Source: Nitrosopumilaceae archaeon
GTDB taxonomy: Archaea > Thermoproteota > Nitrososphaeria > Nitrososphaerales > Nitrosopumilaceae
DNA: 32,000 nt
Assembly (NCBI GenBank): GCA_035528495.1
Contig: DATKYM010000100.1
Span: forward strand, 72,784 to 104,783
Reading direction: 5' to 3'
This document shows positions 6,429 through 31,314 of the stretch, in pieces (position 1 is the first letter of the stretch; each line of letters opens with the position of its first letter). A program made the translations under genes and the position numbers. A model generated the notes under the pieces. That model made no database searches. It was not told the DNA's origin and saw only the letters and a program-made list of their open reading frames with translations.

Positions 6429-7241
6429 ATGATGAAAACTCATCTATCGGTGTTTGCCTTATTTGCGATCATGATTGCAAGTATTGGAATGGCACCCGCA
6501 TTTGGACAAATAGTGCAACCAATCGTTGTTTCTACTGATAAAGACGCCTATACAGAGGGTGAGACTATCATGGTAACAGGAGAAGTAAGTGAAATTCTTT
6601 TCGGATATGCTGTTAGTCTCATGACTATAGCTCCCAATGGCAATGTAGTTTCAATTGACCAATTAATGGTTGGTTCTGATAAAAAATTCAATACAGAATT
6701 GTCTGCAGGAGGATCGCTCATGAAGGCTGGTGGAGAATACACGATTCAAGTCCTTTATGGAACCGAAAATAGAACAGCAGAGACATCATTCTCATTCCCA
6801 GGATCTAGCGGTTCTGAATCCAACCTTGTACAAGTAGAGGGAACCGACTTTATGATAGGATTTACAATCACAGGTGGAAAACTACTCTCAATCACACCTG
6901 ACGTAAATGCAAATTCTCTCATCATAGCAATTGATGCATGGGATGATGGTCAACTAACCATTACCTTGCCAAGAGAATTGATCGATGCAAAAATTGGAGA
7001 AGATGATGATGATTACTTTGTCCTAGTTGACGGTGAAGAAGTTGACTTTGATGAAACAACCACATCCACAGATAGAACTCTAACAATCCCATTCACAGCA
7101 GGTGCTGAAGAGATTGAAATTATCGGTACACATGTAATTCCAGAATTTGGTGCAATTGCAGCTTTGATTTTAGCAGTAGCAATTATTTCAATAATTGCAG
7201 TTTCTGCAAAATCAAGACTAAGTATTATGCCAAGATACTAG
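6429..7241 (+). CDS. secreted surface protein with PEFG-type C-terminal sorting tail, paralogue 1 (module A + module B)
   Basis: Signal peptide MMKTHLSVFALFAIMIASIGMAPAFG/Q. Module A of about 95 aa (STDKDAYTEGETIMVTGEV…APNGNVVSIDQL…GGEYTIQVLYG). Module B (…GGKLLSITPD…DGQLTITLPRELIDA…YFVLVDGEEV…AGAEEIEIIGTHV). C-terminus is PEFG + hydrophobic helix + SAKSRLSIMPRY. Confidence 0.85.
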   Translation: MMKTHLSVFALFAIMIASIGMAPAFGQIVQPIVVSTDKDAYTEGETIMVTGEVSEILFGYAVSLMTIAPNGNVVSIDQLMVGSDKKFNTELSAGGSLMKAGGEYTIQVLYGTENRTAETSFSFPGSSGSESNLVQVEGTDFMIGFTITGGKLLSITPDVNANSLIIAIDAWDDGQLTITLPRELIDAKIGEDDDDYFVLVDGEEVDFDETTTSTDRTLTIPFTAGAEEIEIIGTHVIPEFGAIAALILAVAIISIIAVSAKSRLSIMPRY

Positions 7242-7280
7242 ACCTACAACTTTTTTTCATTTTTTAAATATCTATAAATA
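7140..7280 (+). repeat. Direct repeat copy 1: PEFG-tail coding end + stop + T-rich spacer + TATA-like box
   Basis: 7152-7266 is 100% identical to 8992-9106. 7140-7242 equals 8059-8161 except for one synonymous T/C at 7151. The post-stop part (7243-7280) is roughly 85% similar to 8162-8199 by eye. Confidence 0.95.
7251..7280 (+). promoter_or_regulatory. Oligo-T terminator-like run followed by TATA-like box for the next paralogue
   Basis: T7 (7251-7257) and T6 (7260-7265) lie 10-24 nt after the stop. TTTTTAAATAT/CTATAAATA (7261-7280) lies about 26-45 nt upstream of ATG 7306. Archaeal termination at oligo-T and A/T-rich TATA boxes are established; the assignment here is by position only. Confidence 0.4.
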
Positions 7281-7305
7281 CCAAGATATATGGTATTGAA
7301 TCAGG

Positions 7306-8160
7306 ATGAATTTGAAAGATTCGACAACATCAATTGTGTTAGGTGTAATGGTATTCTCACTAATAACAATAAGTTCAATTCAACAAGATGTTTTTGCCGA
7401 TATGATGGGAATGTCTTTAACAGCAAAGGCAGCAGAAGGATCAGACACCATCTTAGTTCGCGGTCAAACATCTTCACAGGTTACAGATCTAACATTAACT
7501 GTAATTTCTCCTGATGGATTTAATAGATTGGCAGTTGCACAATTAACTCCCGATTCCGAGGGAAACTATTCTACAGAATTCAAAATAAGTCCCCTTTGGA
7601 AACAAAATGGTTTCTACACAATAACTGGAATGCAAAGTGTAAATAAAAATTCGTTGTACACAATGCAGGTAGAGGTAGAAGTGATTAATGGAATGGCAAT
7701 GGAAACAATGACAACAGAATCAAATTTGGTAACTGGTCTTTTAATGCCAAAAGAATCACAGATTTTCACAGGATTTACCCTAAGGGCTAATGCCATGGAA
7801 GGCTCTACCATCATAGGAATAACTGGACAATCAGATAGAACCAACTTGGATGTAATTTTGAAGGTTATTGCACCAAATGGAAACGTAGTATCTGTTAGTC
7901 AAATTACACCAAATTTAGATGGTAAATTTGCTAAAGACATTACAACAGGCGGTCCGTTATGGACTCAAGATGGTGATTATACAGTATCAGCTCATCAAGG
8001 AGATTTAGCCGATCATAATGCTTCTATAGTGGTAGGGATTATTGATGGTGTAGTTATACCAGAATTTGGCGCAATTGCAGCTTTGATTTTAGCAGTAGCA
8101 ATTATTTCAATAATTGCAGTTTCTGCAAAATCAAGACTAAGTATTATGCCAAGATACTAG
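7306..8160 (+). CDS. secreted surface protein with PEFG-type C-terminal sorting tail, paralogue 2 (module A duplicated, no module B)
   Basis: Signal peptide MNLKDSTTSIVLGVMVFSLITISSIQQDVFA. Two copies of module A (…ILVRGQTSSQVTDLTLTVISPDGFNRLAVAQLTPDSEGNYSTEFKISPLWKQNGFYTI… and …IGITGQSDRTNLDVILKVIAPNGNVVSVSQITPNLDGKFAKDITTGGPLWTQDGDYTV…). Tail PEFGAIAALILAVAIISIIAVSAKSRLSIMPRY is identical to paralogues 1 and 3. Confidence 0.85.
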   Translation: MNLKDSTTSIVLGVMVFSLITISSIQQDVFADMMGMSLTAKAAEGSDTILVRGQTSSQVTDLTLTVISPDGFNRLAVAQLTPDSEGNYSTEFKISPLWKQNGFYTITGMQSVNKNSLYTMQVEVEVINGMAMETMTTESNLVTGLLMPKESQIFTGFTLRANAMEGSTIIGITGQSDRTNLDVILKVIAPNGNVVSVSQITPNLDGKFAKDITTGGPLWTQDGDYTVSAHQGDLADHNASIVVGIIDGVVIPEFGAIAALILAVAIISIIAVSAKSRLSIMPRY

Positions 8161-8199
8161 ATCTATTACTTTTTTCATTTTTTAAATATACATAAATAG
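8059..8199 (+). repeat. Direct repeat copy 2: PEFG-tail coding end + stop + T-rich spacer + TATA-like box
   Basis: 8060-8161 is 100% identical to 8981-9082. The downstream spacer carries the same T-runs and an AAATATACATAAATA box as copy 1. Confidence 0.95.
8170..8198 (+). promoter_or_regulatory. Oligo-T terminator-like run followed by TATA-like box for the next paralogue
   Basis: T6 (8170-8175), T6 (8178-8183), then AAATATACATAAATA (8184-8198), about 26-40 nt upstream of ATG 8224. It is homologous to 7251-7280. Confidence 0.4.
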
Positions 8200-8223
8200 A
8201 GATTCTTGTGAATCGCATACAAG

Positions 8224-9081
8224 ATGAACAACCGTACGACGTTCGCGCTACTAGCCTTTTTGACTGCAGTCAGCACGTTAACTATGTCATCGGCATATGC
8301 TCAACTAGCCTGTCCTGATTGTGGATTAGATGATCCTAGAATAATTGCAAAGCAGTTATTACTTGACGATATTCCAATTTCAATTTGGACGGATAAATCA
8401 ACATATGACCATAATGACACGATTATCGTAGAAGGGCGCGTAGCAAATGTAGTTTCTGGGGTTCCAGTAACACTTACTGTAACGAGTTCCCTACATTCCA
8501 TCATCACAGTTGACCAAATCGTCGTTGATAATATGGGAAATTTTGCAACAATACTCAGTACAGAAGGTGCTCTTTGGAAACATGATGGAAGGTATATCAT
8601 TAAAGCTAATTATGGTAGTGCTGAAAAAAATAGTAGAGTACTAGTAGAGTTAGTTAATGGAGTAGTTTCTGAATCAATAAGTAAAACATGTGGTCAATCA
8701 GAACTTGATGTAATAGGCAATTGTGTGCCATTTAGTATTTCAGGTGGAACTGTAAATCGTGTAAATGTCAATACCAACGATAATTCTATCATCCTGATGA
8801 TCAGCGCAAATGTAGATGGAACGATTACATTAAGCCCATCTAAAGATGTCCTTGAAGGTCCCTTTATGGTACTTGTGGATGATGAACAATGGGATGATGC
8901 TGAAATCAATGGAAACGAAATCACAGTGATGTTCCTAGCAGGTGCTGAAAAGATTGAAATTTTCGGAACACATGTAATTCCAGAATTTGGCGCAATTGCA
9001 GCTTTGATTTTAGCAGTAGCAATTATTTCAATAATTGCAGTTTCTGCAAAATCAAGACTAAGTATTATGCCAAGATACTAG
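8224..9081 (+). CDS. secreted surface protein with PEFG-type C-terminal sorting tail, paralogue 3 (module A + module B)
   Basis: Signal peptide MNNRTTFALLAFLTAVSTLTMSSAYA/Q. Module A (WTDKSTYDHNDTIIVEGRV…VDQIVVDNMGNFATILSTEGALWKHDGRYIIKANYG). Module B (…SISGGTVNRVNVNT…DGTITLSPSKDVLEGPFMVLVDDEQ…AGAEKIEIFGTHV). Same identical PEFG tail. Confidence 0.85.
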   Translation: MNNRTTFALLAFLTAVSTLTMSSAYAQLACPDCGLDDPRIIAKQLLLDDIPISIWTDKSTYDHNDTIIVEGRVANVVSGVPVTLTVTSSLHSIITVDQIVVDNMGNFATILSTEGALWKHDGRYIIKANYGSAEKNSRVLVELVNGVVSESISKTCGQSELDVIGNCVPFSISGGTVNRVNVNTNDNSIILMISANVDGTITLSPSKDVLEGPFMVLVDDEQWDDAEINGNEITVMFLAGAEKIEIFGTHVIPEFGAIAALILAVAIISIIAVSAKSRLSIMPRY

Positions 9082-9106
9082 ACCTACAACTTTTTTTCAT
9101 TTTTTA
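8980..9106 (+). repeat. Direct repeat copy 3: PEFG-tail coding end + stop + T-rich spacer
   Basis: Identical to copy 1 over 8992-9106. The extended similarity to copy 1 starts at 8941 vs 7101 (166 bp, 4 mismatches). It diverges after 9106, so paralogue 4 has a different upstream region. Confidence 0.95.
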
Positions 9107-9142
9107 TTTTTGATAGTAAAGGAGATATAGAAATAATATGAA

Positions 9143-9961
9143 TTGCTTTTTGTGATAGTAAAGATTTTTTTTGTTTTAGCCATATTGATGTTTTCTAGCA
9201 TTCAGGCTTTTGCTCAAAGTGATGAAATTCCATTTCTTGTTGTAAAAACTGACGATAATCACTATGATGAGGGCGACATAATTGTAGTGTCAGGCCAAGT
9301 CCAAACTGTGATTGTTGAAACTCCAATTATTCTTCAAATTTGGTCCCAGGGAAATATGATTGACATTGCTCAATTTTTCCCAGCACAAGATGGTAGTTAT
9401 TCCCAAACAATTATTGCAGAAAAACCATTATGGAAAAATCAAGGGGAGTATGTGATTAGAATATCATATGGTACCGCAAATATTGCCGAAGCCTCAATTA
9501 CTTATACACCAAGGCAAGAATATCTGAAAACTACAGATAGTTTTGAGGTACAAATTCCAAATGGTGGTACCTTCGACCTAGAATATACCATCAATGGAGG
9601 AGAAGTCAAGAATATTATTCTTGACCCAAATAATTTCACTTTATTAATCCAAATCGATTCACCAGATGAGGGAACAATCTCTCTAAAAATTCCCAGAGAA
9701 TCCTTGGATGCTGAAAAATCTGACGGTCAAGATGAGACATTCATTGTTCTAATTGATGATATTCAAGTTCCTTATGAAGAAACAGAGACTAATTCCCAAT
9801 TACGATTCATCTCAATTAATTTTGAAGAAGGAGACTCTGAAATTGCAATCATAGGGACATTTATTGTTCCAGAATTTGGTGCAGTGGCCGCATTAATCTT
9901 AATATCAGGAATTATAATTTCAATAGGAATTTCCAAAAATAAGTTACTATTAAAAATTTAA
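9143..9961 (+). CDS. secreted surface protein with diverged PEFG-type tail, paralogue 4 (module A + module B)
   Basis: Signal peptide …FFVLAILMFSSIQAFA/Q. Module A (KTDDNHYDEGDIIVVSGQV…FPAQDGSYSQTIIAEKPLWKNQGEYVIRISYG). Module B (…INGGEVKNIILDP…EGTISLKIPRESLDAE…FIVLIDDIQV…GDSEIAIIGTFIV). Tail PEFGAVAALILISGIIISIGISKNKLLLKI. The start is non-AUG (TTG 9143 or GTG 9152); the first in-frame ATG (9188) would truncate the signal peptide. Confidence 0.8.
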   Translation: MLFVIVKIFFVLAILMFSSIQAFAQSDEIPFLVVKTDDNHYDEGDIIVVSGQVQTVIVETPIILQIWSQGNMIDIAQFFPAQDGSYSQTIIAEKPLWKNQGEYVIRISYGTANIAEASITYTPRQEYLKTTDSFEVQIPNGGTFDLEYTINGGEVKNIILDPNNFTLLIQIDSPDEGTISLKIPRESLDAEKSDGQDETFIVLIDDIQVPYEETETNSQLRFISINFEEGDSEIAIIGTFIVPEFGAVAALILISGIIISIGISKNKLLLKI

Positions 9962-9968
9962 ATTTTAA

Positions 9969-11126
9969 TTAAAAAGAATATTTTTCTTTAAAGGGTGAAA
10001 AAGCCCGCAGTTCTTTGACCACGTTTTTTAATATTTCAACAGTTTTATCCATCTCTTCTAAATTATTTGATGTCCCAATAGTGAGTCGTAAAGAACCTGT
10101 TATTTGCTCGTGAGAAAATCCCATTGCTTGGAGTACATGAGATGCTTTTTGTATTTGGACTGAACATGCAGAACCCGTAGATGCAGCAATTCCGAATTCA
10201 TCGAGTTTAATTAAAAGATCTTCGCCGTTAACGCCAAGAAAAGTCAAGTGAACATTATTTGGTAATCTTTCTTCAGGATGACCATTCAAGGTAACTTCAG
10301 GAATTTCTTGTATGATTTTGGTAGAAAGATAATCTCGTAATTCTTTCATTTTGGTGGAATTCTCCAAAAGATTAATGCTTGCCAGTTCACAGGCTTTTCC
10401 AAAACCTACAATGTTAGCTACATTTTCTGTTCCTGAACGTAAACCATTTTCTTGGCCACCACCTAGAATAATTGGATCTATTGAGATTCCATTTCTAATG
10501 TATAAGGCTCCTATTCCTTTAGGACCGTTAATTTTATGAGAAGAAATCGAAAGAAGATCTATTCCTAATTCTTTTACATTTATTGGGATCTTTCCTGTAG
10601 CCTGAACTGCATCAGTATGAAAAATAATATTTTTTTCTTTACAGATTTTGGCAAAATCAAATATTGGTTGAATTGTTCCCACTTCGTTATTTCCAAACAT
10701 GATAGAGACAAGTAAAGTATTTTCGGTGACGGAATTTTTTAAAATCAATGGATCTACCAATCCATAATTATTTACGGGTAGATGGATTATATCAAATCCC
10801 TCCTTGGCCAATATTTTACACGGCTCCAAAATCGCATCATGTTCGATCGATGAAGTGATAATGCGAGACTTGGGATTTTTCTTTGTTATTCCAAAAAGAA
10901 CCATATTATTTGATTCAGTACCTCCAGAAGTAAATAGAATTTCAGAAGGATCGGCGTTAATTAAATTTGCAATCTGTTTTCTTGCTTTCTTTACAGCTTT
11001 ACCTGCATCGCGGCCATACCTATGAATTGATGAAGGGTTTCCATATTGTTCCTTTAGATAAGGTAGCATTTCTTCAAGTACTAATTCATGTATTTTTGTA
11101 GAGGCAGCATTATCTAGATAAATCAA
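9969..11126 (-). CDS. nifS: cysteine desulfurase, NifS/IscS family (PLP-dependent, class V aminotransferase fold)
   Basis: Canonical N-terminus MIYLDNAAST, PLP-lysine block SSHKINGPKGIGALYIR and active-site Cys loop STGSACS. TTG start (11126-11124) overlaps the larE stop as TTGA. Confidence 0.92.
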   Translation of the reverse strand: MIYLDNAASTKIHELVLEEMLPYLKEQYGNPSSIHRYGRDAGKAVKKARKQIANLINADPSEILFTSGGTESNNMVLFGITKKNPKSRIITSSIEHDAILEPCKILAKEGFDIIHLPVNNYGLVDPLILKNSVTENTLLVSIMFGNNEVGTIQPIFDFAKICKEKNIIFHTDAVQATGKIPINVKELGIDLLSISSHKINGPKGIGALYIRNGISIDPIILGGGQENGLRSGTENVANIVGFGKACELASINLLENSTKMKELRDYLSTKIIQEIPEVTLNGHPEERLPNNVHLTFLGVNGEDLLIKLDEFGIAASTGSACSVQIQKASHVLQAMGFSHEQITGSLRLTIGTSNNLEEMDKTVEILKNVVKELRAFSPFKEKYSF

Positions 11127-11932
11127 TCTGCGATCACATTTATTTTTCCTGGTTTATACCCATCAGGATCTACAATAACATCTAAAAATCCAATTAATTT
11201 TAGTTTCTTGATAATATCTTCTAGAATTGCGCTATCCCTTAAAATCTGAATTTTGTCTTTTTCTACTTCTATTTTCGCTATACCATTTAAATCTCTCACC
11301 CTGACTTGTTTTAATTTTGTTCTTTGTTTTACAATTGTTTCTCCAAACTCTATTCTAAGTAATCTTTCAGATGTAATTTTTTGACCCCAAGGAATCCTAG
11401 ATGCTAAACAAGAATTAGAAGGTTTATCATAAACTGATAATCCAACGGATTTTGCAATTTCTCTAATTTCATTTTTATTTAATTGATTTTCTACTAATGG
11501 GCTTCGAATACCATTTTGTTTTAAAGCATCTATCCCAGGCCTATATTCCCCTAAATCATCCAAGTTTGTGCCATCCACAATTAATTCAATATCATGTTTT
11601 TTTGCTAAATCGACTAAATGAGTGCTTAATTCGTTTCTACAATGAAAGCATCTTTTAGAATCATTATTTACAAAATCTTCATTTTCAAGCTCATCATAAT
11701 CTATTAGAATTTGAGATATTCCAATTTCCGAGCAAATTTGTTTTGAAGTTTCAAGTTCTTCTTGTGATAATGTTTTGTAATCAGCAGTAACTGCAATAGC
11801 AGAAGATCCTAATTTTTGATATGCAGCATATGCTACTAAAGCACTATCAACTCCACCAGATAGAGCGACAAAAACACGATTCTTATCTTCAAACCAATTC
11901 GTTAGATTTTCAAGTTTAGTCATGTTCAACAT
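11123..11932 (-). CDS. larE: LarE-type ATP-dependent sulfur transferase (PP-loop ATP pyrophosphatase) for nickel-pincer nucleotide cofactor synthesis
   Basis: PP-loop LSGGVDSALVA, a LarE-like SNSCLASRIPWG block (Cys175) and a CFHC pair (Cys95/Cys98). It lies 2 nt downstream of larC and overlaps the cysteine desulfurase gene. Confidence 0.88.
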   Translation of the reverse strand: MLNMTKLENLTNWFEDKNRVFVALSGGVDSALVAYAAYQKLGSSAIAVTADYKTLSQEELETSKQICSEIGISQILIDYDELENEDFVNNDSKRCFHCRNELSTHLVDLAKKHDIELIVDGTNLDDLGEYRPGIDALKQNGIRSPLVENQLNKNEIREIAKSVGLSVYDKPSNSCLASRIPWGQKITSERLLRIEFGETIVKQRTKLKQVRVRDLNGIAKIEVEKDKIQILRDSAILEDIIKKLKLIGFLDVIVDPDGYKPGKINVIAD

Positions 11933-11934
11933 TC

Positions 11935-13152
11935 CTACCGTATGATTTCTTTTCTAATCAATAGTTCGGTTTCCTTAATTGATTTATTGAGGTGGTTTGC
12001 GATTTTTTTCAAATCGTCAAATTCAATTTTAAAGGTAGATTTTCCTTTAAAAGTTGAAGATTTGTATCTTACATCAAAGATTTCATTTTCCAAAGTTATT
12101 TTTACTTCATTGGTTGTTCTTGGGACAGTTATTCTATCAGAGGACATAACTCGTATTCCCAAGGTTCCAGTTTCGGTAATCAAAGTATCAGTTATCTTCT
12201 CCATGGTGGTATAATCACATATTATAGATACAAGATTTGTGGGTCTGCCTTTTTTTGTAATTCCATGATAAATGGATGCATCCTTGGCACCATCAACCAT
12301 AATTTTTTCAATTAGATTTCCCAATATTTCCCCAGAAACATCATCTACATTTGTTTCGAGAATAATAACTGAATCAGTTTCAAAATTATTTTTTAACCCC
12401 TTTACAATTTTTACCACATTAGAGAAATTATCAAAATCATTTTTCCCTGCCCCATATCCAATAGAATTGATTTTCATTGAGGGATAAAATTCAATTGGAG
12501 TATTAGTTAAATTTACTAAAATACAGGCCCCAGTCGGAGTAGTTAATTCATTTTTTACAATACTGCCATGAATTATCAAATTAGAATTTTTTAAAATTTC
12601 AAGAACTGCACTTGCAGGATTAGTCATTGTTCCATGTGAGAAAGTTATCGTGCCACTTCCAACACAAATGGGCATAGAGACGATTTCGTCATCGAAAAAG
12701 CCTAAATCATCAATTGCTATTCCAACTCCTATTATGTCAACAAGAGTATCAATGCTTGATGCCTCATGGAAATGAACAGATTCTATTGAAATTCCATGAA
12801 TTTTTGATTCAGCTGCAATAAGAGTATCAATGCAAGATTCCACAAAAATTTTTGTCCTCTTAGATAGCCCCAATTCGTTTGCTGATTTTTTTATAGCTTG
12901 TTTAATTTCAGAGCCCTTTCTTTCATGTGTTTTTTCATCGATATCTAAAATTAACGCAGTGGATTCTATTCCATGTTTATTGACTTTGATAAAATCAATT
13001 TTTTTTATGTTAGAATCTGGAAGAAATTTTTTTGAAGATTGTATTCCATCAAGTATCTTATTTTTATTTGCCCCCAAATCAACTAAGGAGCATAAAATCA
13101 TATCCCCAGATATGCCAGCTACATATGGATCTATAACGATGACCATAGACAA
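11935..13152 (-). CDS. larC: LarC nickel insertase (DUF111/UPF0272 family)
   Basis: 405 aa. The N-terminus …VIDPYVAGISGDMILCSLVDLGAN matches the LarC/DUF111 signature (…D.FSGISGDM.LGAL.DLG). Size and synteny with larE fit. Confidence 0.88.
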   Translation of the reverse strand: MSMVIVIDPYVAGISGDMILCSLVDLGANKNKILDGIQSSKKFLPDSNIKKIDFIKVNKHGIESTALILDIDEKTHERKGSEIKQAIKKSANELGLSKRTKIFVESCIDTLIAAESKIHGISIESVHFHEASSIDTLVDIIGVGIAIDDLGFFDDEIVSMPICVGSGTITFSHGTMTNPASAVLEILKNSNLIIHGSIVKNELTTPTGACILVNLTNTPIEFYPSMKINSIGYGAGKNDFDNFSNVVKIVKGLKNNFETDSVIILETNVDDVSGEILGNLIEKIMVDGAKDASIYHGITKKGRPTNLVSIICDYTTMEKITDTLITETGTLGIRVMSSDRITVPRTTNEVKITLENEIFDVRYKSSTFKGKSTFKIEFDDLKKIANHLNKSIKETELLIRKEIIR

Positions 13153-13238
13153 AAAATAACTAAAAATGCATATAAATTATGTCTAATTAATTCACAAATT
13201 TCACTAGATTTAATTAATGAAATTTAACACATCTTTTC

Positions 13239-14153
13239 ATGATTACAATTATAGGATCCGGAAAGGTTGGTGGAGATGCAGCATTATTTTCTGCATTAAA
13301 ACGATTAGACGATCAAATATTGTTACTTGATGTTGTTGATGGACTCCCTCAAGGAGAAGCAATGGATATCAATCATATGTTATCAGAGCAAGGAATTGAC
13401 GTAAAGGTTACAGGTTCTAATAATTTTGCCGACATGGAAGGTTCTAAAATAGTTGTAGTTGTGGCAGGTTCTGGAAGAAAACCCGGAATGACTAGAATGG
13501 ATCTTTTAAAAATCAACGCTAATGTTGTTAAAAGCGTTGTTGAAAATATAAAAAAACATGCAAATGATTCTATGATTATCCCAGTTACAAACCCCTTAGA
13601 TCCAATGGCTTACGTCACTTACAAATCATCAGGATTTGAGAAAAACAGAGTTTTTGGAATGGGTGGAATGCTAGATTTGTCAAGATTTAGACAATTTATC
13701 CATGAAGCTACAGGACATTCTCGTGATTCCATTAGAGCGCTTGTAATAGGGGAACACGGTGAAAACATGTTACCACTTCCTAGGTTTTCATCTGTTTCAG
13801 GTATCCCTCTATCTTCATTTCTACCAAAAGAAAAATTAGATGAAATTGTTCAAAATACAAAGCAAGTTGCGGCAAGAGTAATTGAATTAAAGGGGGCAAC
13901 TGTTCATGCTCCTGGAAATGCCATCTCTGCAATTATAGAATCAGTTGTAAGAGATAGGAAACAGATAATTCCAGTCGCCACATATCTTGATGGGGAATAT
14001 GGGCATTCAGATGTCACAATTGGAGTGCCAGCAATAATCGGAAAGAACGGCGTAGAAAAAATAATAGAGTTAGATCTTAATGACGAAGAGAAAAAAATAT
14101 TTGATCTAGGGGTAAAAAATGTAAAGGAAGCCATTTCGGGTATGGAAATCTAA
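13239..14153 (+). CDS. mdh: malate dehydrogenase, LDH-like family
   Basis: Rossmann start [12 protein letters not shown]. The substrate loop [15 protein letters not shown] has Arg at the position that is Gln in true lactate dehydrogenases. Also GEHGENM and a typical length of 304 aa. Confidence 0.9.
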
Positions 14154-14156
14154 GCC

Positions 14157-14163
14157 TTTTTTT
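14157..14163 (+). terminator. oligo-T run just after mdh stop
   Basis: T7 starts 3 nt after the TAA of mdh. However, larB begins only 24 nt later at a forced TTG start, so read-through or co-transcription is also plausible. Confidence 0.3.
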
Positions 14164-14186
14164 ATTCAATAACAATTTAATCATTA

Positions 14187-14972
14187 TTGGAAATTCAAGA
14201 AATTCTAGAATCATTGGAAAGGAGAAAAATTTCTACTCAAACTGCCAAAAAAATGTTGTCACTTTATTCAATCGAACAAATAGAAAATATAGCTAAAATT
14301 GACGTAAATAGAAGAAAAAGAAGAGGAATACCTGAAGTAATTTTTGGAGAAAGTAAATCTATTGACGAAATAAAGAAGATCCTCAAAATTACATTGGAAA
14401 AAACCAATTCAGTAATTGTGTCTAGAATAAAACCAGAAGATTATCCTAAAATAATTTCTTTTTGTAAACGATTGAAAATAAAAATAAAGGTGGGGAAAAA
14501 ATCATCCTCACTTTTATTATTTAAAAAACCAATTAAATTCAATGGAGGTAAAATTGGGATAATAACTGCAGGGACATCAGATATTGGAGTAGCAGAAGAA
14601 GCAAGATTGATGTGTGAAGCTATGAATTGCAAAAGCATTACAAGTTATGATGTTGGAGTTGCAGGAATTCAACGAATATTTCCTATTTTAAAAGAAATGA
14701 TAGAAAAAGAGGTTGATTGCGTCATAGTTGTAGCTGGAATGGAAGGTGCTTTGGCAACATTGGTTTCTTCTATGGTAGATATTCCCGTTATTGGAGTACC
14801 TACATCTGTTGGATATGGTTATGGTGAAAAAGGAATTGCAGCCCTTGCTTCAATGTTACAAAGCTGTTCGCTGGGCTTATCTGTTGTAAACATTGATAAT
14901 GGAATTGCAGCAGGTGCCATTGCAGCTAATATTTCCAACAGAGTCAATGGCAAAAACAAAAAGACGGAATAA
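14187..14972 (+). CDS. larB: LarB, pyridinium-3,5-biscarboxylic acid mononucleotide synthase (PurE/AIR-carboxylase-like)
   Basis: N-terminal helix plus …NRRKRRGIPEVIFGESKS…, then GIITAGTSDIGVAEEA and VVAGMEGALATLVSSMVDIPVIGVPTSVGYG, all characteristic of LarB. The TTG start is forced: an in-frame TAA lies at 14178-14180 and the homologous N-terminus begins immediately after it. Confidence 0.88.
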   Translation: MEIQEILESLERRKISTQTAKKMLSLYSIEQIENIAKIDVNRRKRRGIPEVIFGESKSIDEIKKILKITLEKTNSVIVSRIKPEDYPKIISFCKRLKIKIKVGKKSSSLLLFKKPIKFNGGKIGIITAGTSDIGVAEEARLMCEAMNCKSITSYDVGVAGIQRIFPILKEMIEKEVDCVIVVAGMEGALATLVSSMVDIPVIGVPTSVGYGYGEKGIAALASMLQSCSLGLSVVNIDNGIAAGAIAANISNRVNGKNKKTE

Positions 14973-15066: not shown

Positions 15067-16644
15067 TTGTCGGGTAAAAGAATTGTTTTAACTGCAGATC
15101 GTAGTTTGATGACAAATTATCGAGGAAATTTTCTTTATGGATTTATTGCGTGTGGCCCATATGAAGTCCTTCCAGAATGGGTCTTCGACAAAGTTTTCTG
15201 TCCACCTGTTGAAACAAACCCGATAACTGGTGAAGTAAAAGTTGCACAAGTAGGGCTAAGAAGAGTGGAGAGTTCTCTTCTTCAAGGATACAAAAGAGAC
15301 GAGGTGTTTATTGCAAATCCTGAAATGTTGGACAAATCAATTGGACCAGATACTAAAGTTGTTGGAATAAATGTCATGGATCCACTTGGAATGGCTCCTG
15401 TAACAACAACAATGTCTCCTGAAAAATTATCTTATGTTGCCATGAAATTTAAAAAAATGTGTGCCAATATTATCCAACTCAAAAAGAAATATGATTTTAA
15501 AGTTGTAGTTGGAGGTAACGGTGCTTGGGAATTAGCAAAATCAGATAGAATGAAAATTCATGGGATAGACACCGTGGTGGTAGGTGAAGCCGATGAATTG
15601 GCCTTGGATTTATTTCGTGATTTAGAAAAGGGAGACGCACCAGAGTTGATGCATTGTTTTGTAAGAAATATACAAAACATTCCAGTTATTGAAGGTCCAA
15701 CAATTAATTCACTAATAGAGGCAATGCGAGGATGTGGAAGAGGTTGTGATTTTTGTGATGTTAATAAAAGATCCAAAAAAGATCTTCCATTAGAAAGACT
15801 TCAACATGAGGCAAAAATAAATCTGGATTACGGTTTTGATTCAATTTGGTTGCATTCAGATGAAATGTTATTGTATGGATGTGATAATCGAGATTTTATC
15901 CCAAATAGAGATGCCATTACAGAATTATGGAAAGGACTAAAAGGATTAGGTGCAAATTTTATTGGGACAACACATATGACTTTCTCTGCAGTTGCAGCAG
16001 ATGAAAAGTTAATGCAGAATATTTCTCAAATTAACGAACAAGATGTAACCGGTAGATGGCTTGCCACTAATTTAGGAATTGAAACTGTTTCGCCGAATTT
16101 GGTAAAGAAACATCTTGGTGTTAAAACTAAACCTTTTGCACCTGAAGAATGGGGAAGTGTAGTCAGAGAGGGGGCTAAAATATTAAATGAAAATCATTGG
16201 TTCCCAGCTGCAACAATTATCATCGGCTGGCCAGATGAAACACCAGATGATAGTCAATATACGATAGATATGATTAGTGATTTCAGAGCCATGAACTTTA
16301 GAGGGCTGGTTGCACCATTACTCTATCAAGACTTTAGTGAAAAAAACTCCATGCATTTTGGAAATTTGAACGAGGCTCAGTTTACATTGTTTTGGAAATG
16401 TTGGGAAAATAATCTTCGTGTTATTAATGATATTATTCCAATTATTCTTAGAAACAAAACATATGGTCCACCAATGAAGATATTCATGTATGGAATTCTA
16501 AAAGCTGGTACTTGGGCAATAATGAGATATCTTCGAGGCTTATGTAAAGATCTATTTAATGGAAGAACACCGGATGAAATTATCGACAAGTATGCACGTG
16601 CCAGATCAGTGTCTGCACCAACGATTCAAACAAAGAAACTATAG
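15067..16644 (+). CDS. radical SAM enzyme with N-terminal Rossmann/B12-binding-like domain (function unassigned)
   Basis: CxxxCxxC motif CGRGCDFC at 15733-15756 (Cys223/227/230), about 220 aa into the protein. An upstream pattern (KVVGINVMDP…FKVVVGGNGAWE) is possibly reminiscent of cobalamin-binding-domain radical SAM proteins. The start is TTG 15067 (first possible start after the in-frame stop at 15028-15030) or ATG 15109. Confidence 0.85.
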   Translation: MSGKRIVLTADRSLMTNYRGNFLYGFIACGPYEVLPEWVFDKVFCPPVETNPITGEVKVAQVGLRRVESSLLQGYKRDEVFIANPEMLDKSIGPDTKVVGINVMDPLGMAPVTTTMSPEKLSYVAMKFKKMCANIIQLKKKYDFKVVVGGNGAWELAKSDRMKIHGIDTVVVGEADELALDLFRDLEKGDAPELMHCFVRNIQNIPVIEGPTINSLIEAMRGCGRGCDFCDVNKRSKKDLPLERLQHEAKINLDYGFDSIWLHSDEMLLYGCDNRDFIPNRDAITELWKGLKGLGANFIGTTHMTFSAVAADEKLMQNISQINEQDVTGRWLATNLGIETVSPNLVKKHLGVKTKPFAPEEWGSVVREGAKILNENHWFPAATIIIGWPDETPDDSQYTIDMISDFRAMNFRGLVAPLLYQDFSEKNSMHFGNLNEAQFTLFWKCWENNLRVINDIIPIILRNKTYGPPMKIFMYGILKAGTWAIMRYLRGLCKDLFNGRTPDEIIDKYARARSVSAPTIQTKKL

Positions 16645-17214: not shown

Positions 17215-18186
17215 TTAAATTTTTGATTTAATTTGCCTATGAATTGTAAATCCAATAGCGGCTGGGGCTGCCAAATACAAACCCAAATTTAGCGCAATAA
17301 CAGATATTCCCAAAGCTAAGACTTGACTATCGTTTCCTTCTTCTGCTAATGTCATTATGGACAAAGTAGAAATCATCGGGGTGATAAATAATCTAACAGC
17401 CTCTTGGAAGACCGGATTCTCTCTTTCCAGATCAGCGATTGTTGGTGAGAATGAATAGTATAATTGGTTAAAACCAGTCATAAATGCTGAGCCTGATGTA
17501 GTTCCCATCACGGTGTTGTCCCTAATTTCTCTCAAAAATTGGACTTGGGGTGCAAGTTCAGATCCAAATGCCGCCGTAGCAATAAGGCATCCTCCTCCGC
17601 GGTCATTAATCACTTCACATTTACCGTTTACGAGTTCAGTTCCTGTACCACAAATTGGCTCTGGTTCAGGGTCGGGCTCAGTGACTTTAGGTGGTTCGGG
17701 TTCTCTTGGTGGTTCTGGTTCTCTTGGCGGTGTAGGTTCTCTTGGGGTTGTGGGTTCATCTTGTCCTGGTAATGATGGCTCGAAAATTCCACCTGTGTAA
17801 AGCATAGTTGTTTCACCCTTTATTGCCCCAAAGAATAATTGAATTTTATAATTGCCACTCTCCTTGAAGTAAATTCCTCCTGTAACAAAATTAAAAGAAA
17901 ATGTCCCATCAGAATTGGGTACCATCTGACCGATAGTTACAATATTTCCCACTGTATCCATAAGACGGTATGTCAAAGCTGTATTAGAGTGGATATCAGG
18001 ATCGAAATCACGAATGAATCCATCTACATAAGCTCTATCACCATTTTCATATGAGGGTAATTCGGTCTTGGCAGAAATCGGCGGAATATTATGAGAATCT
18101 GCAAATACAGAACCACTAAAGCCATATGAAAAGATGGAGAAAGATAAAAGTACGAACACAAGAAAACCAGCAAGTCTCATTTTCAT
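17215..18186 (-). CDS. secreted chimeric surface protein: module A + Pro/Glu-rich linker + Cys knot + CLIATAAFGS-type C-terminal membrane domain
   Basis: Signal peptide MKMRLAGFLVFVLLSFSIFSYGFSGSVFA. Module A (…YENGDRAYVDGFI…VGNIVTIGQMVPNSDGTFSFNFVTGGIYFKESGNYKIQLFFG). Linker EPTTPREPTPPREPEPPREPEPPKVTEPDPEPEP. Then CGTGTELVNGKCEV and GGGCLIATAAFGSELAPQVQFLREIRDN, followed by hydrophobic segments. Confidence 0.85.
   Translation of the reverse strand: MKMRLAGFLVFVLLSFSIFSYGFSGSVFADSHNIPPISAKTELPSYENGDRAYVDGFIRDFDPDIHSNTALTYRLMDTVGNIVTIGQMVPNSDGTFSFNFVTGGIYFKESGNYKIQLFFGAIKGETTMLYTGGIFEPSLPGQDEPTTPREPTPPREPEPPREPEPPKVTEPDPEPEPICGTGTELVNGKCEVINDRGGGCLIATAAFGSELAPQVQFLREIRDNTVMGTTSGSAFMTGFNQLYYSFSPTIADLERENPVFQEAVRLFITPMISTLSIMTLAEEGNDSQVLALGISVIALNLGLYLAAPAAIGFTIHRQIKSKI
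17690..17761 (-). repeat. degenerate 18-bp tandem repeat (4 units) encoding the PREPEP linker
   Basis: Plus-strand units are ggtggttcgggttctctt / ggtggttctggttctctt / ggcggtgtaggttctctt / ggggttgtgggttcatct. Translated on the minus strand these give (P)REPxPP repeats. Confidence 0.8.
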
Positions 18187-18239: not shown

Positions 18240-21200
18240 TCATATTCGAATTATTCCTTTTTTAGCTAAAAATTCAATTGTCGATAGAAATTCATCATCA
18301 GAGAGTTCATTATTTGACCACCACTTTGCCGTAATTTTTAACCACTCAGGAATACTGATTTCAGATAATGAGTTTACAGTAGATGGGATTTTAATAATCC
18401 CTTTATCAATTAGATCTTCTAAACCAACAACAAACTCTGAATCAGAAATTACATTAGATGACCATCTCTTTGCCTTATCTTTTATCGATTCGGGGACACT
18501 CTGATGTAGTACAATAAAAGAAGTAAAACCCACATCTTCATTATTATGAGATAGTTGAATGTCATAGGTTCCAGTTAACGAACCATCATTAATTGAGATT
18601 ATTCCTTTATAGTCCCCCTTGACAGTCAACGAAGCAGGGAAAGTTTGAGTGACACCGTCTGGTTTGACTAGAATAATAGTTAAAGGAATTCCCACTTTAT
18701 GATTTGATATATTTCCTGATAGTACAATGTTCTCAACCTTACCATTTGTTGGAAGAATTATTTTATTTTGGCTTAACTCGGGCTTGCTGGAATATTGAGG
18801 TGATTTTCCATTACTTGATAGACTAAAAATATTAGATTCTCCAGAATTATCTAGAGCATCATGATATTTTGCATCTAAACTTCCCCCAGCTGAAGAGATT
18901 AATTTTGTACCTGATTTATCACATATTTGCGATGGCATTTTGAAAACTCCTTTAAAAATCCCTGTAGTCGTTCCTGTTTCAACCAAGCTAAAACCTGTGG
19001 AAGATAATCCACCATACTCAACACCATTTATGGTACAACGTTTGTAACGAATATCTTTGATTAAAATTTCTAATAAAATATTTCCATCTTTTCCCACAGT
19101 GTCTACGCTAGTGGAAGTAGGATCGTTAATTACTTGATACGTATCAATGTTGTCGTTTTTTAGATTAAGATCTGGATCATTCAAGGTAAATGTTACAGGT
19201 TGACCAAATCTATATGTCGTCGAATCTAAAGACACTCTACCAGAATTTGTGTTTATATCAGATTTTGCAGAAGTTGTAACTACAACTCCAACCTTCGCTA
19301 TATCAGAATAATTAATTGAAATTCCTTTTTCATCTACTAATCTGTCAGTGACAATGAATTTTACTTCATCACCAATAGTTTTAATGGTTCGAATAAAACT
19401 TGGGTCTAAAATATTCAATTGATTTGTTACTGCAAATTCTAAAGTTCCCACAAATTTAGAGGAGTTATCACTTGTCTCTTCTAATTCAAATCTATAAATT
19501 GAATTATTGACATCATCATTATCAACAAGTCCAAATGAAAAGAAGTCAAAAACTATTGGTTGTTTATTAATTTCATTAGAAATAGTCCCTACACCGTTAT
19601 CATCTTTAGACGAATCAAAATTAATGACAACAAACACTGACCCACTTTTTGAAGATATCGCTTTTACAACTAAATCACTGAGTGGAATAAAACCATTTGA
19701 TGACATTTGTCCGGGACTCACAATTGTAATTGAGGATGATCCTAGACTACCAAAAAAAAGTTCAACTGAGGTATCTGAAAAATCACTTATTCCTAAATCG
19801 TTTGAAAAAGATTGAAGATCAAAATTAAGCCAGTTGGTTCCAAAGGAGTTTGGCACAGAAGAATCAATCAAAATAGATTGTAATTTAGATGCAGGAATTC
19901 CAAGGTTGAGTGAAATCTTCTCAAATTTACCATTTGCAACATTTGAGGTATCGATAACTAATCTATCAGATTTTTTATCGGAGACTAGAGAATTTGAGTG
20001 GATGCCGATAAGGTCATCTGAATTTGTGAAAAATTGAACGTCAAAGGAATTTTCAAGGGTAATTGGACTTCCTATTTGCAATGTTGGGATAATAGCAGTT
20101 TCTCGAAAGACATCCAAGTGATCTCTTGAACCTGAATTAATATTTTGATCATCATCAAATAGTATTACTGAAAATTCAGTTCCTGGACGCAAAGAAGTAG
20201 AGCCATCACCTATGCTAATAACAGGGTCATCGCCTAAAGAAACCCCAGCCGTAGAAGATCCAGTTAACACAGATACTGATTGTTCATTATAATTAATCCT
20301 GCCAGTTTGTCCTCTTGGCGCGTCATTTAAAATTCTAATCGTAGATTGGTCATTATCATCTACATTATCAAAAATTCCAGAGTATGGTCCTTCTTCTACC
20401 AAAGTGACAATTTTGGAATATTTTTTACCAGCCCCATTATCCACAAATGTGTTCGGTTGATCTTGATTCGACTTTAATTCCATTATATTGTTCAAATCAA
20501 TGGACAAGAGTCCATTATCTTCGAATCCCAATCTAGATAAATTTGGTTTCAAGTCTACTAACCCCGTATTACCATTAGCCGAACTTCTTCCAGAACTATC
20601 ATATGCTTGATAGAAAACTGAATTTGGTGAATCAATGTTGAATGTCCAAGAATCCTCATCAGTTGGATCTTGATTTAATTGAATATCCCTAATAGTTACA
20701 AACACTTCAGAATTTTGTGGATAATTTTCTCGGTCAAGTTCTAAGAAAATATTTTGAATGTCATCATATTCAAGATTCACTTGTTGTACACCTCCGCCAG
20801 GATTGTATTGGATGTTCACATCATCAAAAGAGAAGAGTTGGATAAGTGGCCAAGCATTTGGTTCAAGTCCTATCTGTCCTGGAGAAATTAGGGGGTTCGT
20901 GTTTATGGATTTTGCTTTTCGTACCACATTGTTTAGATTTACAGAATTTGCAGGGGTTCCAGTGCAGGAACTAAAAGAAATTTCCCCATTGGTGAAACCA
21001 GTCACACCACTGGAACGTGGAATTGCGACACCATCAGTCTCAGAAAGATCAATTCCTAGAGAACTTGTACCTCTACCACAAAAGACACCAAAGTCTAATC
21101 CTTCCCCTGCAAGACCTACTGTTGAGTCGGCAGTCTTGGCTTTATCCACATTTGCAAAGTAGGCATACCAATTTCCATCACTAGCTTGAACCATTCGGAG

Positions 21201-21428
21201 ATTTTTTCCGTTAATCGTAACATCTGGCTCCCCTTTACCTTCATCTGTATCATTAATATTCGAATTTCGAATTACAACCTCAATTACCATGGAACCTGAA
21301 AAATGATTTTCAAATTTTAAATTCTCAGCAGAGACTGAAAGATTGGGATTACTTCCAGCATCAGCTTGTGAAATTGGCATTATTAATAAAATTGAAAAGG
21401 CAAAAAGGAGTAAAAGTTTTTCACGCAT
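18240..21428 (-). CDS. large secreted surface protein (1062 aa) with internal acidic Ig-like-type repeats, one C-proximal module A and twin W-rich C-terminal repeats
   Basis: Signal peptide MREKLLLLFAFSILLIMPISQADA. Recurrent acidic stretches (IRDIQLNQDPTDED, LFDDDQNINSGSRD, LNDPDLNLKNDNID) are each followed by [LV]xE[ET][GS]xxx[GS]xFxG-like strands (LVEEGPYSGIFDN, ELEETSDNSSKFVG, LVETGTTTGIFKG). A module-A-like segment (…LSGNISNHKVGIPLTIILVKPDGVTQTF…GTYDIQLSHN) follows. It ends with two WxxNxxSDxEFxxxxExLxxKGIIxI repeats. Confidence 0.9.
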   Translation of the reverse strand: MREKLLLLFAFSILLIMPISQADAGSNPNLSVSAENLKFENHFSGSMVIEVVIRNSNINDTDEGKGEPDVTINGKNLRMVQASDGNWYAYFANVDKAKTADSTVGLAGEGLDFGVFCGRGTSSLGIDLSETDGVAIPRSSGVTGFTNGEISFSSCTGTPANSVNLNNVVRKAKSINTNPLISPGQIGLEPNAWPLIQLFSFDDVNIQYNPGGGVQQVNLEYDDIQNIFLELDRENYPQNSEVFVTIRDIQLNQDPTDEDSWTFNIDSPNSVFYQAYDSSGRSSANGNTGLVDLKPNLSRLGFEDNGLLSIDLNNIMELKSNQDQPNTFVDNGAGKKYSKIVTLVEEGPYSGIFDNVDDNDQSTIRILNDAPRGQTGRINYNEQSVSVLTGSSTAGVSLGDDPVISIGDGSTSLRPGTEFSVILFDDDQNINSGSRDHLDVFRETAIIPTLQIGSPITLENSFDVQFFTNSDDLIGIHSNSLVSDKKSDRLVIDTSNVANGKFEKISLNLGIPASKLQSILIDSSVPNSFGTNWLNFDLQSFSNDLGISDFSDTSVELFFGSLGSSSITIVSPGQMSSNGFIPLSDLVVKAISSKSGSVFVVINFDSSKDDNGVGTISNEINKQPIVFDFFSFGLVDNDDVNNSIYRFELEETSDNSSKFVGTLEFAVTNQLNILDPSFIRTIKTIGDEVKFIVTDRLVDEKGISINYSDIAKVGVVVTTSAKSDINTNSGRVSLDSTTYRFGQPVTFTLNDPDLNLKNDNIDTYQVINDPTSTSVDTVGKDGNILLEILIKDIRYKRCTINGVEYGGLSSTGFSLVETGTTTGIFKGVFKMPSQICDKSGTKLISSAGGSLDAKYHDALDNSGESNIFSLSSNGKSPQYSSKPELSQNKIILPTNGKVENIVLSGNISNHKVGIPLTIILVKPDGVTQTFPASLTVKGDYKGIISINDGSLTGTYDIQLSHNNEDVGFTSFIVLHQSVPESIKDKAKRWSSNVISDSEFVVGLEDLIDKGIIKIPSTVNSLSEISIPEWLKITAKWWSNNELSDDEFLSTIEFLAKKGIIRI

Positions 21429-22881: not shown

Positions 22882-22885
22882 TAGT

Positions 22886-30706: not shown

Positions 30707-31314
30707 CGTCCCATCATATCAAGAAATTCTTCTTCTGTCCTTTTTTGCATTACTAGATTAGTTATTTTTTCTTTTCCAATTGTAGAAATTAAGGATGACC
30801 CATAATTGTGCCCACAGTATAGAGTGAGATTTTCATCCAAAGAATACAAAATATCAAAAAGACTGTGATAAAGTTCCTTGGCGCTACCTCCAGGTAAGTC
30901 AATACGCCCGCAATTACCCACAAAAAGTGTGTCGCCTGAAAAAATTTTTCCATCACCAACTAGACAAATACTATCTCTAGAATGTCCGGGTGTATGGAAA
31001 ACACGTAATTCTGAATTTCCAAAAGTTATCAGATCACCATCTTTGACTGTAATATCATTTTGTAATTCTGATTCTTCATGCTGAATTATTTTTGCCCCAG
31101 TTGATTTTGCCATAGCCTCATTCCCAACAGTATGATCAAAATGATGGTGAGTGTTTACAATGTATTTTATTTTTAAATTATTTCTAGTAATAACCTGTTC
31201 AATCTTGTCAAGATCCCAAGAAGGATCAATTACAATTCCTTGGTCAGTGTTATCATCTTCAACTACATATGCAAAGTTTTGCATGCTTCCAACTTGGATT
31301 TGGTGTACTTTCAT
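30703..31314 (-). CDS. metallo-beta-lactamase-fold hydrolase (glyoxalase II-like)
   Basis: THHHFDH zinc-binding motif, downstream HTPGHS and DTLF…GR.D motifs, 203 aa. The ATG overlaps the upstream stop (ATGA). Confidence 0.85.
   Translation of the reverse strand: MKVHQIQVGSMQNFAYVVEDDNTDQGIVIDPSWDLDKIEQVITRNNLKIKYIVNTHHHFDHTVGNEAMAKSTGAKIIQHEESELQNDITVKDGDLITFGNSELRVFHTPGHSRDSICLVGDGKIFSGDTLFVGNCGRIDLPGGSAKELYHSLFDILYSLDENLTLYCGHNYGSSLISTIGKEKITNLVMQKRTEEEFLDMMGR

Follow-up and report, generated by a model that had tools for sequence, protein, structure and literature searches.

A predicted nickel-pincer nucleotide pathway with a LarE-coupled cysteine desulfurase in a Nitrosopumilaceae ammonia oxidiser

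The DNA considered here is a 32,000-nt stretch of a contig from a Nitrosopumilaceae archaeon (DATKYM010000100.1, positions 72,784 to 104,783). The whole of this stretch is referred to below as the window, and coordinates are given in window positions. It contains a compact cluster of larB, larC, larE, a cysteine desulfurase gene and a malate dehydrogenase gene (mdh). Judging from the encoded proteins, the locus very probably specifies a complete and functional pathway to the nickel-pincer nucleotide cofactor (NPN, or its mononucleotide form NPMN) in an ammonia oxidiser of this family, with an ordinary mdh and with the enzyme that uses the cofactor (the client) encoded elsewhere. The three lar assignments had been proposed in an initial annotation made from the letters of the window. 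They hold: LarB, LarC and LarE all score above curated equivalog cut-offs and keep the published catalytic residues, and the set is complete for cofactor synthesis.

LarB, LarC and LarE

The proteins of the cluster were assigned with curated NCBI equivalog hidden Markov models (HMMs), each with its own cut-off, alongside Pfam. Pfam alone gives only generic labels (AIRC for LarB and QueC/PP-loop for LarE). The initial annotation had allowed that the PurE-like and PP-loop proteins might fall in other subfamilies. The HMMs support all three Lar assignments, and the models for the alternatives (PurE, QueC, NAD synthase, MnmA and TilS) score far under their own cut-offs for the cluster proteins.

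LarB matches NF033503 (248.9 bits; cut-off 175), whereas the PurE model TIGR01162 gives 40 bits (cut-off 149.6). Residues 5-251 align to residues 6-244 of Lactiplantibacillus plantarum LarB (7mj0), including an N-terminal extension that is absent from PurE. The catalytic cysteine is kept in the motif SC..G..VVNIDNG and is equivalent in this alignment to Cys221 of the L. plantarum enzyme, to which Rankin et al. reportedly assigned a catalytic role in 2021. LarB is predicted to be a nicotinic acid adenine dinucleotide (NaAD) C5-carboxylase/hydrolase that makes pyridinium-3,5-biscarboxylate mononucleotide.

The LarC1 model TIGR00299 (161.1 bits; cut-off 90) and the LarC2 model NF052512 (103.2 bits; cut-off 50) both match one unbroken open reading frame (ORF), which also has the conserved domain PF01969 (E-value: 1e-104). 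Because LarC1 and LarC2 lie in a single ORF, no frameshift is needed, unlike in L. plantarum. The protein aligns end to end with the cryo-EM structure of Moorella thermoacetica LarC (12bi). Alanine substitution cripples the M. thermoacetica enzyme, LarC(Mt), at D15, R71, E104, H108, H116, H118, E119, D124, D128, H160 and E187 (PMC13510736), and all 11 of these essential residues are identical here (D15, R76, E113, H117, H125, H127, E128, D133, D137, H171 and E200). LarC is predicted to be a CTP-dependent nickel insertase (cyclometallase) in which LarC1 and LarC2 are fused.

LarE matches TIGR00268 (260.7 bits; cut-off 150), aligns over its full length with L. plantarum LarE (LpLarE; 5udq) and has the PP-loop motif SGGVDS. 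In this alignment it carries C-F-H-C where LpLarE has no cysteine, and its third cysteine (SNSC-LASR) lies one residue past the position of LpLarE Cys176, with a serine aligned to Cys176 itself. A CXXC-C signature with the third cysteine offset by one from LpLarE Cys176 is found in most LarE homologues, and the LarE of Thermotoga maritima binds a [4Fe-4S] cluster bearing a transferable non-core sulfide that is replenished by IscS (PMC9283937). A sacrificial LarE of the L. plantarum type was ruled out by the serine at the Cys176 position and the presence of CxxC. The protein can instead be classified as a predicted [4Fe-4S] (CxxC...C) ATP-dependent sulfur insertase.

Cysteine desulfurase and sulfur supply

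The desulfurase has the conserved domain PF00266 (E-value: 9e-86) and passes the model NF002806 (321.8 bits; cut-off 304); against the NifS model TIGR03402 it scores 510 bits, slightly below the cut-off of 530. The translation has the pyridoxal phosphate (PLP)-lysine motif SSHK and the catalytic loop STGSACS. The TTG start of its gene overlaps the stop codon of larE by 4 nt (GAT-TGA / TTG-ATT). We infer that this enzyme is the persulfide sulfur donor for LarE. Because LarE is of the [4Fe-4S] type and its gene overlaps that of a NifS/IscS-like desulfurase, a catalytic, non-sacrificial sulfur supply is implied. The initial annotation listed the desulfurase correctly and missed both its coupling to a [4Fe-4S] LarE and the housekeeping nature of mdh. 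This larE-nifS coupling provides natural genomic support for the model in which IscS feeds sulfur to [4Fe-4S] LarE, and the two proteins are a matched enzyme pair that should be useful to enzymologists for reconstitution.

Proposed pathway

The steps of the pathway are taken from characterised bacterial enzymes and would run in the following order. LarB would carboxylate NaAD at C5, with release of AMP. The PP-loop of LarE would then adenylylate each carboxylate, and sulfur would replace oxygen twice. This sulfur would be the non-core sulfide on a [4Fe-4S] cluster held by the CxxC...C cysteines; the persulfide of the NifS/IscS-like desulfurase would replenish the sulfide, so that LarE would turn over catalytically and would not be consumed. 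The fused LarC1-LarC2 protein would CMPylate the LarE product and insert nickel. The enzyme that receives the cofactor would be encoded elsewhere in the genome; it may be a LarA homologue at a distant site, or it may belong outside the LarA family.

Conservation and selection

The cluster was compared with 87 related loci, comprising 7 GTDB genome loci and 80 metagenome loci, with LarC identities of 54-91% overall. The genome loci come from a scan with a single LarC protein and narrowly specific patterns; the metagenome loci are the best 80 from a scan with a LarC alignment, all of them with at least 66% identity. All cluster genes are intact across this set. Adjacency was counted only where the contig was long enough: mdh is divergent from larC in 64 of 65 loci, larB follows mdh in 54 of 54, larE follows larC in 74 of 74, the desulfurase gene follows larE in 66 of 68 and a radical-SAM gene follows larB in 40 of 40.

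Ratios of nonsynonymous to synonymous substitution rates (dN/dS), calculated pairwise against close relatives, are 0.13-0.15 for larE, 0.08-0.12 for larC, 0.05-0.12 for larB, 0.07-0.10 for the desulfurase gene and 0.03-0.06 for mdh. All five genes are thus under purifying selection, and the values for the four biosynthetic genes (0.05-0.15) indicate that the pathway is being maintained.

Gene order is conserved far beyond the cluster. A metagenome-assembled genome (MAG) of the NP-alpha clade, tabulated by Kerou et al. in 2021, matches it for 30 consecutive genes, _100 to _129 (PMC8397731). Synteny extends all the way from rpoB to the S13/S4 genes, and adjacency is therefore weak evidence for coupling either mdh or the radical-SAM gene with lar.

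Several points weigh against the interpretation of the locus as a complete NPN pathway with an ordinary mdh. The pathway is a prediction from gene sequences. The desulfurase could be a general housekeeping enzyme of the IscS type that merely adjoins larE. The product of LarB may be the mononucleotide or the dinucleotide (NPAD) form. The adjacency of mdh and larB is conserved as well as that of the lar genes themselves, so that, given the high synteny background, mdh may still have a functional tie to the pathway.

Gene layout and organism

The five ORFs reported in the initial annotation were re-found at exactly the same positions and on the same strands (Table 1). The true starts of larC and larE likely lie slightly inside the longest ORFs. 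The internal ATG codons are preferred because public assemblies carry these versions as called genes; a LarC version with the TTG start of the longest ORF has no record in public assemblies, in which the ATG two codons downstream begins the called gene.

Table 1. Features of the lar cluster in the window.
Feature	Position	Strand	Length	Description and assigning models
Cysteine desulfurase gene	9969..11126	-	385 aa	Class-V aminotransferase, NifS/IscS-type group I, PLP-dependent; PF00266 and NF002806
larE	11123..11923	-	266 aa	PP-loop protein, from ATG 11923 (longest ORF up to 11932); TIGR00268
larC	11935..13146	-	403 aa	DUF111/Ni_insertion protein, from ATG 13146 (longest ORF up to 13152); TIGR00299 and NF052512
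larC/mdh divergent spacer	13147..13238	.	92 bp	Two promoter-like blocks
mdh	13239..14153	+	304 aa	LDH-like NAD-dependent malate dehydrogenase; NF004863
larB	14187..14972	+	261 aa	PurE-like protein; NF033503

Several metagenome assemblies from sediment and soil contain sequence identical to this locus, in one case on a MAG contig labelled Nitrosopumilaceae_JACEMX01_2. The thaumarchaeal context given in the initial annotation is borne out by this label and by homologues of about 80% identity that NCBI names 'LarC [Nitrosopumilus sp.]'. JACEMX01, the genus to which this marine archaeon is assigned, is 'Ca. Nitrosomaritimum', a group of coastal-sediment ammonia-oxidising archaea (AOA) in the amoA clade NP-gamma-2.2.2.1 (PMC12753310). 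The cluster lies in a conserved archaeal core region with rpoH, rpoB, rpoA, PEFG-CTERM surface proteins, and CDF and ZIP transporters; multicopper oxidase, S13, S4, glmS, cobT and nnr genes are further neighbours. No tRNAs or Rfam elements were found in the 32-kb window.

The client enzyme

No ORF of at least 100 aa in the 32 kb matches PF09861/LarA, in agreement with the initial annotation, which had reported the lack of larA in the window. A canonical larA just outside the window, the outcome which that annotation had named as removing the orphan aspect, was looked for, and neither the 10 kb before the window nor the 20 kb after it contains one. PF00248 and PF02423 genes are likewise absent, both from the window and from these two flanks, the right one of which ends at window-equivalent coordinate 52 kb. 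The right flank, read 20 kb past the window on a 134-kb contig, keeps the NP-alpha order (Translin, RpoN, Eno, S2, MVK, IPK, IDI, GGPS, GlnS and MhpD), with Memo and Fur genes extra. No plausible client, whether LarA, an aldo-keto reductase (AKR), an ornithine cyclodeaminase (OCD) or another enzyme, is adjacent to the cluster in the 87 related loci, and none of the 17 non-standard ORFs resembles one.

The view that the client is unlinked or unknown stands in so far as none lies nearby. The label 'orphan' does not follow from 32 kb without larA in this lineage. Kerou et al. annotated larA and a 'nickel cofactor maturation system' in sediment AOA, with larA on a separate contig from larB/larC (PMC8397731). 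Since larA of AOA lies on a different contig from larB/larC, its absence from a 32-kb window is expected either way.

Whether the genome itself encodes a LarA homologue bears on two interpretations of the client. That it has none, and that the client is an NphT-like AKR, an ornithine-cyclodeaminase-type Rossmann enzyme or a member of a family not yet recognised, has roughly an even chance of being correct. Genomes that have larBCE and no larA have been recognised since 2014; they make up about 15% of those surveyed (PMC11796402), and a later paper speaks of 'hundreds of prokaryotes' (PMC13524815). Two non-LarA client families have been demonstrated, namely NPAD-dependent ornithine cyclodeaminases and NphT-type aldo-keto reductases (PMC13524815). 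LarA is confined to clades NP-theta, NP-delta and NP-iota according to Kerou et al. (PMC8397731), by which account NP-gamma AOA lack it; the lar genes are under strong purifying selection, which argues that some client exists; and an AKR is present in an NP-alpha MAG, as gene _11 of GWHAABI00000002 (PF00248, 332 aa). On the other side, the paper behind the absence of LarA also tabulates, without discussing it, a PF09861 cluster in other pelagic AOA, and a candidate client is linked to the lar cluster in 0 of 87 loci.

In the table of Kerou et al., two pelagic NP-alpha MAGs have a 361-aa protein assigned to arCOG02046/COG3875/PF09861. Its cluster, CLUSTER_5018, is separate from those of sediment larA and receives no comment in that paper (PMC8397731). 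In Alpha_AOA_ma1 the PF09861 protein is encoded on the LarC-Mdh-LarB contig, 45 genes downstream, between rseP and pyrE and beside the nuo operon (PMC8397731). Under the NP-alpha MAG identifier GWHAABI00000002, the same table has a short 361-aa PF09861 protein as gene _157, and neither it nor the AKR is discussed as a nickel-pincer client (PMC8397731). Either of these two proteins could be the cofactor user in pelagic AOA.

The second interpretation follows from this gene: the cluster is not an orphan, and a LarA-superfamily homologue elsewhere in the genome, likeliest at the rseP-pyrE site, completes an ordinary, dispersed LarABCE set that would act on some 2-hydroxy acid. This is a serious possibility, if a lesser one. 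Besides the protein of the two NP-alpha MAGs, it is favoured by the gene order of Alpha_AOA_ma1, which is near-identical to that of this genome over _100 to _138 (these genes match almost gene for gene), and by the sediment AOA that have an unlinked larA along with larB and larC. From this order, the equivalent rseP-pyrE site is predicted about 35 kb past the right end of the window, some 14-15 kb past the furthest DNA read. The occurrence of COG3875 in 3 of 13 Nitrososphaerota genomes (Table S1 of PMC11770544) weighs on both sides: it is a point in favour, and yet, as only 3 of 13, it contrasts with a lar cluster in all 87 sampled Nitrosopumilaceae loci and so also counts against a distal LarA. 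The same is true of the restriction of LarA to NP-theta, NP-delta and NP-iota, JACEMX01 being NP-gamma-2.2.2.1, and of the lack of a PF09861 gene up to window-equivalent coordinate 52 kb.

Taken by itself, it is somewhat more probable that this genome lacks a LarA homologue than that it has one. A stronger proposal is that this archaeon and most marine Nitrosopumilaceae are without any LarA and that their universally conserved pathway feeds an enzyme outside LarA, the NphT-type AKRs and the NPAD-OCDs. This appears doubtful; if true, the main nitrifiers of the ocean would use, in their core metabolism, a nickel cofactor that has gone unrecognised, and would have a hidden need for nickel.

Malate dehydrogenase and the divergent promoter region

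The malate dehydrogenase (MDH) encoded within the cluster passes the curated model NF004863 (380.7 bits; cut-off 283) and is about 55% identical to the solved lactate dehydrogenase (LDH)-like MDHs 7aob, 4plh and 2d4a. The alignments show the NAD-binding features GxGxxG (GSGKVG) and the NAD-specifying aspartate after beta-2 (LLDV). The substrate-binding and catalytic residues are all present: R102 (not Gln), R109, N140 (TNPLD), D168 and R171 (LDLSRFR) and H195 (GEHG). In the eleven sediment AOA MAGs of Kerou et al., the single mdh of the tricarboxylic acid (TCA) cycle is the gene numbered between larC and larB, for example NPMRTH1_1580009/10/11 and NPMRD3_220005/06/07 for larC-mdh-larB (PMC8397731). 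Because the NAD-type residues are intact and this is the sole TCA-cycle mdh in those MAGs, mdh can be regarded as a housekeeping gene. It is probably embedded in the cluster without being part of the NPN pathway, and appears to be kept in place by the strong regional synteny of Nitrosopumilaceae and not by a pathway role.

In an alignment of 68 distinct versions of the divergent spacer, the blocks AAAAATGCWTATAAATTC and TTCAYTAGATTTAATTAWTGAAAAT are at least 90% conserved. One block would serve larC-larE-nifS and the other mdh, and the distance from block to downstream start codon is about 20-35 nt in both cases. We infer that the two blocks are separate archaeal promoters with B recognition element (BRE)/TATA sequences. 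The mdh promoter block (13200-13222) holds an imperfect palindrome, TTCAYTA-N8-TAWTGAA, across the TATA-like element; this could be an operator or simply AT-rich promoter sequence. The spacer between mdh and larB is 33 bp long and has an oligo-T run at its beginning.

A further interpretation is that MDH itself is the client, as an LDH/MDH-fold enzyme that binds the nickel-pincer (di)nucleotide in place of NAD and carries out a redox-neutral reaction on malate/oxaloacetate. The position of mdh between larC and larB in nearly every locus counted, and also in NP-theta, NP-delta and NP-alpha MAGs, would fit this, as would the suggestion that many proteins encoded next to larBCE and labelled NAD(P)H oxidoreductases may in fact use NPN, and the use of the dinucleotide form by a Rossmann-fold OCD (PMC13524815). 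It is nevertheless most unlikely. The canonical NAD-binding and catalytic residues, the identity to solved NAD-MDHs, the score against the curated MDH model and the role of the gene as sole TCA-cycle mdh all oppose it. The gene has its own conserved promoter block and is separated from larB by the oligo-T run, and in a region that is syntenic throughout its adjacency carries little weight. In addition, NAD is a dissociating co-substrate for MDH, which would be a poor fit with a scarce prosthetic cofactor. Least credible of all is that no nickel-pincer cofactor is made and that larB, larC and larE are only lar-like paralogues that do something else, for example as a PurE-type mutase, a general PP-loop thiolase or an unrelated DUF111 protein: the generic Pfam labels of LarB and LarE leave room for this, whereas the equivalog scores far over cut-off, the far lower scores of PurE, QueC and other PP-loop families, the conserved family-specific catalytic residues and the invariable co-occurrence of larB, larC and larE speak against it.

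Neighbouring genes

The gene directly after larB in each of the 40 loci counted encodes a 525-aa radical-SAM protein with a B12-binding domain (15067-16644, + strand). It is conserved beyond any lar gene or mdh (median identity 92%; dN/dS 0.02-0.03), with weak family matches (TIGR04013, 56 bits; cut-off 251) and marginal PDB matches (E-values of about 1e-3). A role as a lar accessory was considered and rejected, as the gene has a separate intergenic region containing a TATA-like element and its conservation far exceeds that of the lar genes. We presume that it might be an archaeal lipid (glycerol dialkyl glycerol tetraether) radical-SAM enzyme. In one divergent Nitrosopumilaceae genome, a 240-aa membrane protein of the VIT1/CCC1-like iron/manganese transporter type is encoded between larB and the radical-SAM gene (L018:5465-6184).

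Four tandem paralogues on the other side of the cluster (6429-9961, + strand) encode proteins of about 270-285 aa with a signal-like segment at the N-terminus and a PEFG-CTERM sorting domain (TIGR04296) at the C-terminus; these are probably archaeosortase substrates. The set is kept between rpoH and nifS, including in the NP-alpha MAG, and a related locus (L019) has an extra PEFG-CTERM paralogue between mdh and larC. As PEFG-CTERM proteins, these were rejected as cryptic clients. The same applies to h323 (17215-18186, - strand), a protein of 323 aa that is secreted and combines a Pro/Glu-rich linker with a CFI-box-CTERM domain (NF041770, 73 bits). A 1062-aa protein without a Pfam or NCBIfam match is encoded at 18240-21428 (- strand). 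The genes for h323 and for this protein are syntenic and fast-evolving, with identities of 41-79% and 52-73%, respectively.

At 21523-25112, 6-10 kb away from the lar genes, a metal-handling trio encodes a CDF cation-efflux protein with three matches to ZT_dimer, a ZIP/ZupT-like transporter and a multicopper oxidase of two domains. The NP-alpha MAG keeps the trio as well, and no evidence ties any of its members to nickel. Between GGPS and glnS, about 35 kb from the lar cluster, is the gene for a metal-responsive regulator of the Fur family (PF01475; L104:17133-17567, - strand); the gene is absent at this position in the NP-alpha MAG. At 15-17 kb from larB are genes for a CobT-like nicotinate mononucleotide:dimethylbenzimidazole (NaMN:DMB) phosphoribosyltransferase (29633-30706, - strand) and an Nnr/YjeF_N NAD(P)HX-repair protein (31311-31955, - strand). 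That these share nicotinate/nicotinamide nucleotide substrates with LarB is probably coincidental. To the right of the window, about 14 genes are inserted between nnr and translin in comparison with the NP-alpha MAG (L100:476-9785 and L101:1-4500). The insertion includes DsbD_TM, EB_dh/cupredoxin, YHS, thioredoxin and methyltransferase genes, and its distal part varies between strains; DUF5906 and SHOCT genes in one version suggest an integrated element.

Significance

Ammonia-oxidising archaea rank among the most abundant marine microbes, and what they require in trace metals feeds into models of nitrification. Because an intact nickel-pincer pathway is under purifying selection in every sampled Nitrosopumilaceae locus, the nickel cofactor is very probably made, and in most Nitrosopumilaceae it has no assigned reaction. 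If a distal LarA homologue is the user, its recognition would be routine annotation. If there is no LarA homologue, AOA would offer a clean system, and one of ecological importance, in which to look for another class of nickel-pincer enzyme.

Comparison with known systems

The three-enzyme NPN pathway and both LarE mechanisms are established (PMC13524815, PMC9283937). The initial annotation overstated the novelty of the locus, as the larBCE-only pattern and two non-LarA client families were already known and lar genes had already been annotated in AOA. Literature searches for nickel-pincer, LarC or DUF2088 work on Nitrosopumilus or Thaumarchaeota found nothing relevant beyond Kerou et al.

The cluster has the same three biosynthetic families as the larABCDE operon of L. 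plantarum, with conserved catalytic residues. Unlike in that operon, larA, larD and a nickel transporter are not linked here, LarC is one ORF without a programmed frameshift, LarE is of the Fe-S type and not sacrificial, and the cluster consists of two divergent units around mdh.

The closest mechanistic parallel is with the NPN pathway of T. maritima, which shares the SGGxDS PP-loop, the CxxC...C ligands, the third cysteine shifted by one from LpLarE Cys176, and a cysteine desulfurase as the expected sulfur source (PMC9283937). T. maritima has LarA homologues (PMC9283937), and its desulfurase genes are far from larE, whereas here the NifS/IscS-like gene overlaps larE and the pair is conserved. 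The overlap and the conserved pairing are therefore genomic evidence for a dedicated partnership.

As in the larBCE-only clusters with NphT AKRs (PMC13524815) or NPAD OCDs (Desguin 2025), larBCE occurs here without larA within 20 ORFs, the definition used for those clusters. In those clusters the client lies beside the lar genes, whereas none of the 87 loci has such a neighbour. The sediment AOA of Kerou et al. have the same larC-mdh-larB arrangement near the rpo operon, and only larB and larC are listed there as the 'nickel cofactor maturation system' (PMC8397731). Their NP-theta, NP-delta and NP-iota clades have an unlinked larA too, whereas no LarA is reported for the NP-gamma-2.2.2.1 clade of this genome. 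Against this background, the modestly new elements are the tight larE-nifS coupling, the near-invariant cluster across Nitrosopumilaceae and the explicit question of the client in NP-gamma AOA.

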